A stretch of 64,000 bases of DNA from Myxococcaceae bacterium (GTDB lineage Bacteria; Myxococcota; Myxococcia; Myxococcales; Myxococcaceae): contig JBGALX010000012.1 in assembly GCA_044223505.1 (NCBI GenBank), positions 90,174-154,173 on the forward strand, given 5' to 3'. Below the pieces are notes generated by a model that saw only the letters and a program-made list of their open reading frames with translations, ran no database searches and was not told the origin of the DNA. Positions within the stretch are counted from its first letter, which is position 1. Every line of letters begins with the position of its first letter. Position numbers and translations under genes: made by a program. Shown here one piece after another: positions 2,380 through 2,632 of the stretch.

Positions 2380-2632
2380 GACGCGGACGTGGTCGTAGCC
2401 GTGGTCGTGAGCGTGGTCGTTGTCGTGATCGTTGTCGTGATCGTGATCGTGATCGTGATCGTTGTCGTGATCGTGATCGACCACGACCACGACCACGACC
2501 ACGACCACGATCACGATCACGATCACGATCACGACCACGGCTACGACCACGTCCACGTGCGCGAGCGCGTCCACGTGCGTGTGCGTGTGCGCGTGCGCTT
2601 CCACGTGCGTGTGCGCGTGCGCTTCCACGTGA
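2380..2632. repeat. Intergenic hexanucleotide microsatellite: (GTGATC/GTGGTC)n, then (GACCAC)5, then (GATCAC)n, followed by (GTGCGY)n containing four CACGTG palindromes.
   Basis: Read directly from the sequence. The tract lies between the adhesin gene start (2321) and the stop of the MBL-fold gene (2633). It would encode His/Asp/Val-rich peptides in several frames, but only as part of spurious long ORFs. Confidence 0.85.

Follow-up and report, generated by a model that had tools for sequence, protein, structure and literature searches.

What is a long array of six-base units doing between two genes of a Myxococcaceae bacterium, and how did it get there? We addressed this question in a window of 64,000 nucleotides (contig JBGALX010000012.1, positions 90,174 to 154,173 of the forward strand), and all positions below are counted within it. 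The array lies between the gene for a metallo-β-lactamase (MBL)-fold hydrolase and the gene for a large tandem-repeat adhesin. An initial annotation had described it as a hexanucleotide microsatellite with a long imperfect inverted repeat, whose length could tune the adhesin. The first part of this description holds. The tract very likely represents a foldback repeat without coding function, about 280 nt long and made of inverted hexamer arms without a loop. The best overall explanation is probably a foldback repeat that turns over by slippage and template switching, and that would act as an RNA hairpin at a 3' end or between two cistrons.

The hexamer register on the plus strand extends over 46 units at 2359-2634 without any insertion or deletion. 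Since it begins at 2359, the repeat starts about 20 nt to the left of position 2380, given by the initial annotation. The first units are GACGAC, GTGGAC, GCGCTC, GTGGAC, GCGGAC, GTGGTC, GTAGCC, GTGGTC, GTGAGC, and GTGGTC. The left series continues with GTTGTC, GTGATC, GTTGTC, (GTGATC)4, GTTGTC, and (GTGATC)2, up to the centre of the palindrome. To the right of this centre, the order is (GACCAC)5, (GATCAC)4, GACCAC, GGCTAC, GACCAC, GTCCAC, GTGCGC, GAGCGC, and GTCCAC, and a tail of (GTGCGY)n and TTCCAC follows. The units of both arms share one plan, a constant CGT/ACG triplet and a variable triplet. Tandem Repeats Finder divides the tract into period-6 arrays at 2400-2479, 2478-2557, and 2556-2622, with super-repeats of 24/30 nt at 2547-2631. 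The longest perfect runs within this heterogeneous array are (GACCAC)5, (GTGATC)4, and (GATCAC)4. The window has a G+C content of 71%. The pattern NNNNCG runs for 37 consecutive units in the tract, and its longest run elsewhere in the 64 kb is 7. Likewise, 20 of the 27 window matches to GTGATCGTGATC (up to two mismatches, 4.75 expected) fall inside the tract.

Three parts can be distinguished. The G/T-rich arm (2359..2478) contains 20 hexamers of the GTNNNC type (GTGGAC, GTGGTC, GTGATC, GTTGTC, GTAGCC, and others), and corresponds to the 3' arm, of GAYCAC type, in a minus-strand mRNA. The A/C-rich arm (2479..2574) adjoins it without a spacer, according to the inverted-repeat search and the folds. 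Finally, an unpaired extension of this second arm (2575..2634) consists of (GTGCGY)n and TTCCAC, arranged as a 24-nt super-repeat of alternating purine-pyrimidine runs. It overlaps the stop codon of the MBL gene by 2 nt and forms a separate small hairpin in the RNA fold.

The best inverted-repeat arms reported by the repeat finder are 2363-2461 and 2478-2576, of 99 nt each and 88% complementary. The palindrome is imperfect and loop-less, and its centre at 2478/2479 reads GTGATC-GACCAC. Units that do not belong to the repetitive runs are mirrored as well. More precisely, GTGGTCGTAGCCGTGGTC faces GACCACGGCTACGACCAC, and GCGCTC faces GAGCGC; written by unit, GTGGTC-GTAGCC-GTGGTC on the left arm is answered by GACCAC-GGCTAC-GACCAC on the right. 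Because these unusual units are mirrored between the arms, the palindrome exceeds the trivial effect of a microsatellite. The whole tract is inverted-repeat out to its ends (ACGTGGAAGCGCACG and CGAGCGCGTCCACGT). The folding energy of the sense (minus-strand) RNA is -222.7 kcal/mol (z = -14.5), where shuffled sequences reach -140.8 ± 5.6, and that of the DNA is -131.6 kcal/mol (z = -13.7). Rfam 15 contains no family for this hairpin. The matches were sub-threshold and to generic miRNA/SymR hairpins (2427-2536).

The (GTGCGY)n tail, the GATC sites, and the four CACGTG palindromes singled out by the initial annotation are all present. There are 12 GATC in the tract, and CACGTG occurs at 2554 and 2572, in the A/C-rich arm, and at 2602 and 2626, in the extension. 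This local density could suggest a protein-binding array, in which a methylation-dependent GATC cluster or the four CACGTG serve as operators through which a regulator acts on the gene for the adhesin or for the MBL hydrolase. We regard this as very improbable, since both motifs follow automatically from the units. GATC is contained in the GTGATC unit, and the unit junctions between CCAC and GTGCG create CACGTG. The latter is not enriched across the window (31 found, 29.3 expected). The sites are missing in relatives, and related hairpins are built of other units that have neither motif. The GATC and CACGTG sites are thus explained by unit composition, and a role as regulator sites is not supported.

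Two open reading frames (ORFs) run through the tract, and the initial annotation was right to call such a His/Asp/Val-rich product spurious. The first (7..2628, minus strand, GTG start, 873 aa) reads VEAHAHTH..VVVIVIVI..DHDHDN.. through the tract, and beyond it traverses the adhesin gene out of frame. The second (2083..2832, plus strand, 249 aa) reads ..VVVIVIVI..DHDHDHDH..GYDHVHV.. and overlaps both real genes. Codons of the form GTN-NNC read GNN-NAC on the opposite strand, which leaves one register open in both directions. This openness, the G/C-rich third positions, and weak sub-threshold matches to ZrgA and NicO might suggest a small protein with His/Asp-rich (metal-binding) and Val/Ile-rich (membrane) parts. 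Such a protein is hardly credible. The sense frame lacks a stop for all its 873 codons, with none before position 7, and the sequence is absent in relatives. All the Pfam matches of these ORFs are sub-threshold and of low complexity. The database matches are equally spurious. In the public hypothetical proteins P0125-P0128 (66-147 aa), a V/I run is joined by a short linker to a D-H/D-Y run, and evidently each was miscalled as a gene on a hexamer-arm hairpin of another genome. In Sorangium hairpins of this type, described below, the conserved centre brings a stop into the equivalent, otherwise open register. The adhesin reading frame also has stops inside the tract. The tract is non-coding, and the His/Asp/Val ORFs are by-products of the palindrome.

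The flanking genes place the tract precisely. Both are on the minus strand, and the gap of 310 nt between the MBL stop (TGA, 2635..2633) and the adhesin start (ATG, 2321..2319), where the initial annotation had located the repeat, is nearly filled by it. The first base of the tract comes directly after the stop codon of the MBL gene, and its end is about 30 nt short of the adhesin ATG. The MBL gene (2633..3778, minus strand; Pfam Lactamase_B_2, 7.3e-46) has homologues that are 84-85% identical. It has a TTG start, an N-terminal membrane anchor, and the end ...STQMN-TGA. A gene for a single-domain response regulator (3791..4186, minus strand; Response_reg, 3.1e-16) precedes it, with synteny in L001 and L002. 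This gene is the first in the conserved order response regulator-MBL-adhesin-DUF481. The 5' part of the adhesin gene (1..2321, minus strand; Big_9, 6.3e-120) runs off the window. It encodes a signal peptide and 8 Big_9/Cadherin_4/Cadherin_5 units. Its ATG is kept in relatives, and the N-termini align with those of L001, L002, L080, and L004.

The best relatives of the MBL protein belong to uncultured Myxococcaceae/Archangiaceae-like bacteria, and their junctions differ in content. In L001 (MBL 84% identical), the order response regulator-MBL-adhesin-DUF481 is kept and the MBL-adhesin gap is 21 nt. In L080 (74%), the MBL-adhesin order is kept with a gap of 36 nt, and the spacer contains GTGGAC. 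The gap of L002 (85%) holds an unrelated hairpin (GGGGACAGGC..GCCTGTCCCC) and (GTGCTGCGCCCC)4 at L002:2317-2470. A PhdYeFM/ParE toxin-antitoxin pair occupies the junction in L081 (2648-3192). Finally, L004 (73%, a metagenome-assembled genome (MAG) of Archangiaceae) has a trehalase gene and a hexamer hairpin at L004:6020-8250. This hairpin, (TCCACG)5 - 55 nt - (TGGACG)6, starts 13 nt after the orthologous MBL stop and folds at -121 kcal/mol (z = -10.6). No synteny downstream of the MBL gene was found in L003, L082, and L083. The MBL protein had no exact match, and a 24-nt anchor from the 3' end of its gene had no match in metagenomes.

The junction alignment puts the extra DNA between the MBL TGA and a leader of about 30 nt, at 2352..2632 (boundaries ±10 nt, no strand), with no counterpart in L001 and L080. 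Given their gaps of 21 and 36 nt, the tract is a dispensable, lineage-specific addition of about 280-290 nt. As read from these alignments, the ancestral state is a tight, operon-like MBL-adhesin junction, and the tract is a gain of this lineage. The junction itself is an insertion hot spot, with different inserts in different lineages.

The ancestral short leader (2322..2351, minus strand) lies downstream of the tract, with a spacing shared by the orthologues. All five orthologues have TGCA (2335-2338 in the window) upstream of the adhesin ATG, at a distance of exactly 14 nt. Four of them (not L002) also have a GG (2348-2349 in the window) 10 nt farther upstream, in a GG-N10-GC spacing. The leader motif corresponds to 2335-2349 (minus strand) in the window, L001:7141-7167, L080:3108-3143, L004:8215-8249, and L002:2455-2470. 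Over 17 of 30 positions, the leader is identical to the 'ATGGAGTGA + spacer' of L001 at an equal distance from the ATG, which suggests a relic of the ancestral stop region. In L001, the GG of the motif is within the last sense codon of the MBL gene. The GG-N10-GC and TGCA weakly suggest a sigma-54-like -24/-12 spacing, with a candidate start about 3 nt before the ATG and a nearly leaderless mRNA. This sigma-54-like leader, drawn from the GG-N10-GC spacing in four of the five orthologues, is kept as an idea only.

These junctions bear on the proposal that the repeat is a contingency-locus switch, in which slippage in unit number alters the spacing or strength of an adhesin promoter. The contingency loci of Haemophilus and Neisseria have homogeneous repeats inside an ORF or a promoter spacer, and they act by a change of frame or spacing. 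Known switches use long homogeneous tracts of 1-5-nt units. Like them, our tract is a slippage-prone repeat of short units next to a surface adhesin gene. It is upstream of this gene, has perfect runs of 4-5 units, and belongs to a hairpin class that is polymorphic in unit number between strains. The promoter-like GG-N10-GC/TGCA is just downstream, and the tract could shift its distance to upstream activator sites. However, the tract is outside the adhesin ORF, palindromic, and heterogeneous, with short perfect runs and no known spanning promoter. No sigma-70-like promoter was found in or around it, and no promoter-like site was seen in or across it. Steps of six bases in a hairpin arm cannot shift the frame, and they do not fall between a -35 and a -10 element. 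Relatives with the same operon-like junction lack the tract. The look-alike hairpins are mostly at the 3' ends of unrelated genes and not at adhesin promoters. We therefore consider a contingency switch improbable, and nothing supports a phase switch of the adhesin through promoter spacing. The tuning of adhesin expression by tract length, proposed in the initial annotation, is not supported by these observations, nor by a conserved signal that is downstream of the tract.

Hairpins of the same build recur in other bacteria. We scanned species-representative genomes and metagenome contigs for the exact pattern (CGTGRT)3-N0-30-(AYCACG)3, for which about 1e-5 matches would be expected by chance in random sequence (our calculation). 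The scan gave 75 stretches, 39 in genome contigs and 36 in metagenome contigs. Viral contigs contained no such hairpins, so a viral origin is not backed. About 20 of the 39 genome stretches belong to Sorangium sp. So ce726, spread over 0.9-11.5 Mb of its chromosome. S. cellulosum So ce56 has 5 or 6, and So ce1000 has 2. Uncultured Myxococcales, Bradymonadales, Terriglobia, Acidobacteriota, and gammaproteobacterial MAGs have 2-3 each. Two different Planctomycetota MAGs have one each. The hairpin type is thus recurrent in Myxococcota (Sorangium, Bradymonadales, uncultured Myxococcales, and the Archangiaceae MAG), Acidobacteriota, Planctomycetota, and a gammaproteobacterial MAG. In some of these genomes, the hairpins are dispersed, multi-copy elements similar to MITEs (miniature inverted-repeat transposable elements), with terminal inverted repeats specific to each family. 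The same core occurs within different terminal-repeat shells in Sorangium, in Acidobacteriota (next to Acido-Lenti-1 motifs), and in others. The loop-less centre GTGATC-GACCAC of our tract is also found in the Planctomycetota copy L013.

The copies are intergenic and often begin from a few to 30 nt away from a stop codon. In a census made with a crude gene caller, 74 of 79 hairpins were outside ORFs supported by third-position G+C, and 47 were within 150 nt of the 3' end of a gene. L051 and L052 carry the same hairpin and terminal inverted repeat in two different contexts. In L051, a direct repeat of GGCCAAC, a hallmark of MITEs, is present at both ends.

Differences in unit number were found between contigs. 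With identical flanks, L049 and L070 differ by 24 nt (4 units). L065 differs by one centre unit (GCACGC x4 or x3) from a contig of the same set, again with identical flanks. L066 and L069/L044, also with identical flanks, differ by one additional unit in each arm. The length variation that the initial annotation expected is therefore supported by look-alike hairpins, as these contig differences of 24 nt or one unit per arm and the range of 2-18 units per arm in Sorangium indicate, and this support does not come from the window locus. Across the class, arm lengths vary in steps of whole units, in one arm alone or in both alike. Unusual units have mirror counterparts, the centre can be flipped, and entire elements can be inverted.

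Hairpins of Acidobacteriota and Terriglobia are embedded between copies of a motif of about 45 nt. At L012:3921-4067, this motif matches the Rfam family Acido-Lenti-1 (RF01687) above threshold, with 50.7 and 48.7 bits on opposite strands. A resemblance by eye was also noted in L029, L039, L015, L060, L062, L067, L068, L071, L076, and L078. Instead of a free-standing small RNA, Acido-Lenti-1 may represent one part of a composite element that is repeated.

The copies of the Sorangium family (in L006-L043, for example L022:3678-3971 and L010:5327-5579) are homologous and dispersed, and measure about 250-330 bp between the outer terminal repeats. Each consists, in order, of flank A, 2-18 hexamers (GTTTAC, GTGGAC, GTGAAC, GTGGTC), a 22-nt centre, 4-16 complementary hexamers, and flank B. 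Flank A is GGCGTTAACCAAGCTTCGCGCCGCGTTCTCCTACATCCGAACG, and flank B is TTGGTGACCGATGGTGGGG..GACCGAACGAGCTTGGTTAACGCC. The outer 15 nt of flank A (GGCGTTAACCAAGCT) are found again, in inverted orientation, where flank B ends on its far side, which makes a terminal inverted repeat with the sequence CATAGGCGTTAACCAAGCT. The outer repeat is often preceded by CATA, and many copies have TA directly outside. The conserved centre (CGTCAACGATAGGCCGTGAACG) is found in either orientation relative to the flanks, 14 times forward and 10 times reverse (flip/flop). The fold takes in the entire element from one end to the other (z = -13.95). One intergenic site is orthologous between So ce726 (L011:6100-6450) and So ce56 (L027:7500-7800), with flanks that share 93% identity over 6.1 kb. 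Both genomes carry the element there, inverted as a whole, with 18/13 units in one and 9/10 in the other. This corresponds either to an inversion between terminal repeats or to an independent insertion at a hot spot.

The window tract agrees with the architecture of this family. It has period-6 CGT/ACG inverted arms with GTGRTC/GAYCAC innermost, and it matches the pattern at 2436-2575. It also shares the size range, the GTGGAC/GTCCAC and GTGGTC/GACCAC units, and the position after gene ends. We take the tract as an instance of this architectural type, and not as a member of a defined family.

How would such hairpins evolve? From the copies and strains of the class, we propose that replication slippage gains or loses whole units in either arm. 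Any register of (GTGRTC)n pairs with (GAYCAC)n, and hence the hairpin survives such changes. G-U or G-T pairs would absorb the purine and pyrimidine differences between units. Template switching in quasi-palindromes is a known mutational route. Across this quasi-palindrome, it would copy changes from one arm to the other, and it would explain the mirrored odd units and the symmetrical gains.

How the tract acts at the MBL-adhesin junction can be proposed tentatively, as possible rather than probable. Directly after the MBL stop and with no sigma-70-like promoter nearby, the tract is very probably transcribed together with the response regulator and MBL genes. On this message, its RNA would form about 100 bp of stem. 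Long perfect duplexes are textbook substrates of RNase III. The stem might block 3'-to-5' exonucleases and offer a target to RNase III. It may also partly attenuate the read-through into the adhesin gene, like the repetitive extragenic palindromes (REPs) of Escherichia coli in tandem gene pairs. If the conserved leader were an independent promoter, the tract would act on the MBL 3' end only and insulate the adhesin gene.

Several results weigh against this account of a foldback repeat that acts in RNA. On the side of descent, nhmmer profiles of flanks A and B of the Sorangium family had no match at the flanks of the tract (2323-2360 and 2630-2700). The matches obtained were those with E≥12 on hexamers inside it (2544-2558) and others elsewhere at chance level. 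The tract lacks the Sorangium flanks, the outer repeat GGCGTTAACCAAGCT, and the 22-nt centre loop, and it uses units of the GATC type. With neither a flank match nor a centre loop, the tract is not shown to share its descent with any multi-copy family. No second copy was found in the 64-kb window, in 5.8 billion proteins (as an ORF proxy), or in the genome and metagenome collections, whose scans gave no hit to the source genome. The tract ends show no distinct terminal repeat apart from the palindrome and no clear target-site duplication, although a weak direct repeat containing GAAC flanks the tract. The unit differences between metagenome contigs may in part be assembly errors, though the arms are shorter than typical reads. 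On the side of RNA, the antisense strand folds at -211.9 kcal/mol, nearly as well as the sense strand. Both strands fold about equally, and so nothing marks selection at the RNA level or on one strand. The stem is followed by GUCGUCGGUGGGUGGGG and lacks a U-tract. For this reason, the tract is not called a terminator. In mycobacteria, another high-GC lineage, RNA polymerase needs a U-tract for intrinsic termination (PMC3993855). Finally, the adhesin gene may have its own promoter within the 30-nt leader, and the tract would then be limited to the MBL 3' end.

Some further results of these searches can be recorded. No site resembling an intrinsic terminator was found on either strand at 1900-4600. 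No gene for a transposase or another mobile element was present among the 10 neighbouring genes scanned. The strand asymmetry of G-U pairs, tried as a test of RNA against DNA selection, was uninformative with strands so nearly equal. The left flank, CCCCACCCACCGACGAC, seemed to resemble flank B in reverse complement, but nhmmer did not confirm this resemblance, and it was dropped. A weak nhmmer match to the flank-A profile (E 0.03) at 57355-57408 (minus strand) ends with CGTGGTCGTAGTCG. It is antisense within the ORF 56669..57598 (plus strand) and probably due to chance.

It is also conceivable that no mobile element was ever involved, and that a small hairpin, between the cistrons or at a 3' end, grew in place into the tract by slippage and by palindrome-correcting template switches. 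We hold this to be somewhat unlikely. The missing second copy, terminal inverted repeat, and target duplication agree with it. Strains that differ by a symmetrical gain of one unit in each arm show that growth of this kind occurs. Moreover, the orthologous MBL gene of L004 has a hexamer hairpin at its 3' end as well, and the spacer of the ancestral type in L080 already has GTGGAC. Nevertheless, the closest relatives, with 21 and 36 nt, show no intermediate stages. The size of the tract equals that of the mobile Sorangium copies (about 250-330 bp), and other families of the hairpin type are clearly dispersed. We lean slightly towards an arrival by transposition, followed by turnover in place.

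Palindromes and repeats are error-prone in assemblies, which might suggest a chimeric palindrome produced by sequencing or assembly. We consider this artefact extremely improbable. The arms are imperfect (88%) and differ in unit order, and the flanks join conserved gene ends correctly. Finished Sorangium chromosomes and many independent assemblies contain the same architecture.

Known systems resemble the tract in part. REPs measure 20-40 nt, number tens to hundreds of copies in a genome, and have a conserved GTAG head that is recognised by RAYT transposases. Like the tract, the REP/BIME/REPIN elements of Enterobacteria and Pseudomonas are extragenic palindromes just after stop codons, between tandem or convergent genes, and their presence varies between strains. 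In contrast, the tract is a palindrome of about 250 nt with a hexamer stem of about 100 bp, and it has no GTAG head and no known transposase. The foldback (FB) elements of Drosophila are eukaryotic and of kilobase scale, with units of 10-31 bp. They have long inverted arms of short repeats, a unit number that differs between copies and arms, and a variable or absent middle. Their build resembles that of the tract, with no evolutionary or mechanistic link in evidence. With respect to function, the analogy with most support is REP325 in the yjdMN operon of E. coli, a partly Rho-dependent attenuator of read-through and a stabiliser of the upstream mRNA in a tandem gene pair (bioRxiv 10.64898/2026.03.23.713779). 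With respect to build, BrickBuilt of Porphyromonas gingivalis is a non-coding, intergenic, multi-copy MITE with small inverted-repeat ends and an internal array of variable unit number (PMC4596501). The Sorangium hexamer-arm family and L051/L052 fit that description. However, the array of BrickBuilt is a direct 23-nt minisatellite, and here a 6-nt microsatellite is present twice, inverted, so that the hairpin is formed by the repeat. The window tract is not demonstrated to have terminal repeats or multiple copies, as BrickBuilt has. What sets these hairpins apart from REPs, hairpin MITEs, BrickBuilt, and foldback elements is that the inverted duplicate of a 6-nt microsatellite is itself the stem. 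A literature search, which included repeat strings, gave no earlier account of hexamer-arm hairpins, in Sorangium or in any other organism; as its coverage left out most subscription journals, novelty is not proven.

Other repeats are present in the window. At 12147-12272, a 15-nt unit (GCCTCCTGCGGTCGA) is repeated 8.4 times with 97% identity, in frame in the minus-strand ORF 10614..12491. It encodes a low-complexity linker of the (STAGG)n type near the N-terminus of a protein without a Pfam domain. A 138-nt tandem duplication at 9461-9741 (90% identity) covers the 3' end and stop codon of the minus-strand ORF 9627..10424, and leaves a copy of the gene-end fragment downstream. GGC-rich short repeats followed by a 156-nt x2 repeat (4744-5066) are found at 4527-5066; the ORF 4478..6223 (plus strand) has no Pfam match. 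The repeats at 4527-5066 and a 150-nt x2.5 repeat at 42365-42741 resemble coding domain repeats.

What follows for these bacteria? The single tract of the window is an ordinary-looking selfish or neutral insert, and the class to which it is similar exceeds expectation in breadth and dynamics. There is no obvious sign that the repeat controls a switch of the adhesin, and the His-rich ORFs should not be annotated. In general, hexamer hairpins yield false gene calls in public databases, and they are likely breakpoints of assemblies. A bolder reading, which we rate as speculative and fairly unlikely, is that hexamer-arm foldback hairpins are an undescribed, cross-phylum class of repeats, with the self-pairing microsatellite as their propagating and functional core. 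The window tract would then be a recent insertion that makes the MBL/adhesin ratio heritably tunable in six-base steps. The Sorangium family would be a tractable model for the movement and evolution of foldback elements; its dispersed copies number about 20 or more in a genome, its centres show the flip/flop pattern, and at an orthologous site the element is inverted between species. Microsatellite stems pair independently of register, so they can lengthen or shorten without loss of structure. If they act like REPs, as stabilisers of 3' ends or attenuators, they may provide a length-graded adjustment of expression between neighbouring genes in high-GC soil bacteria.

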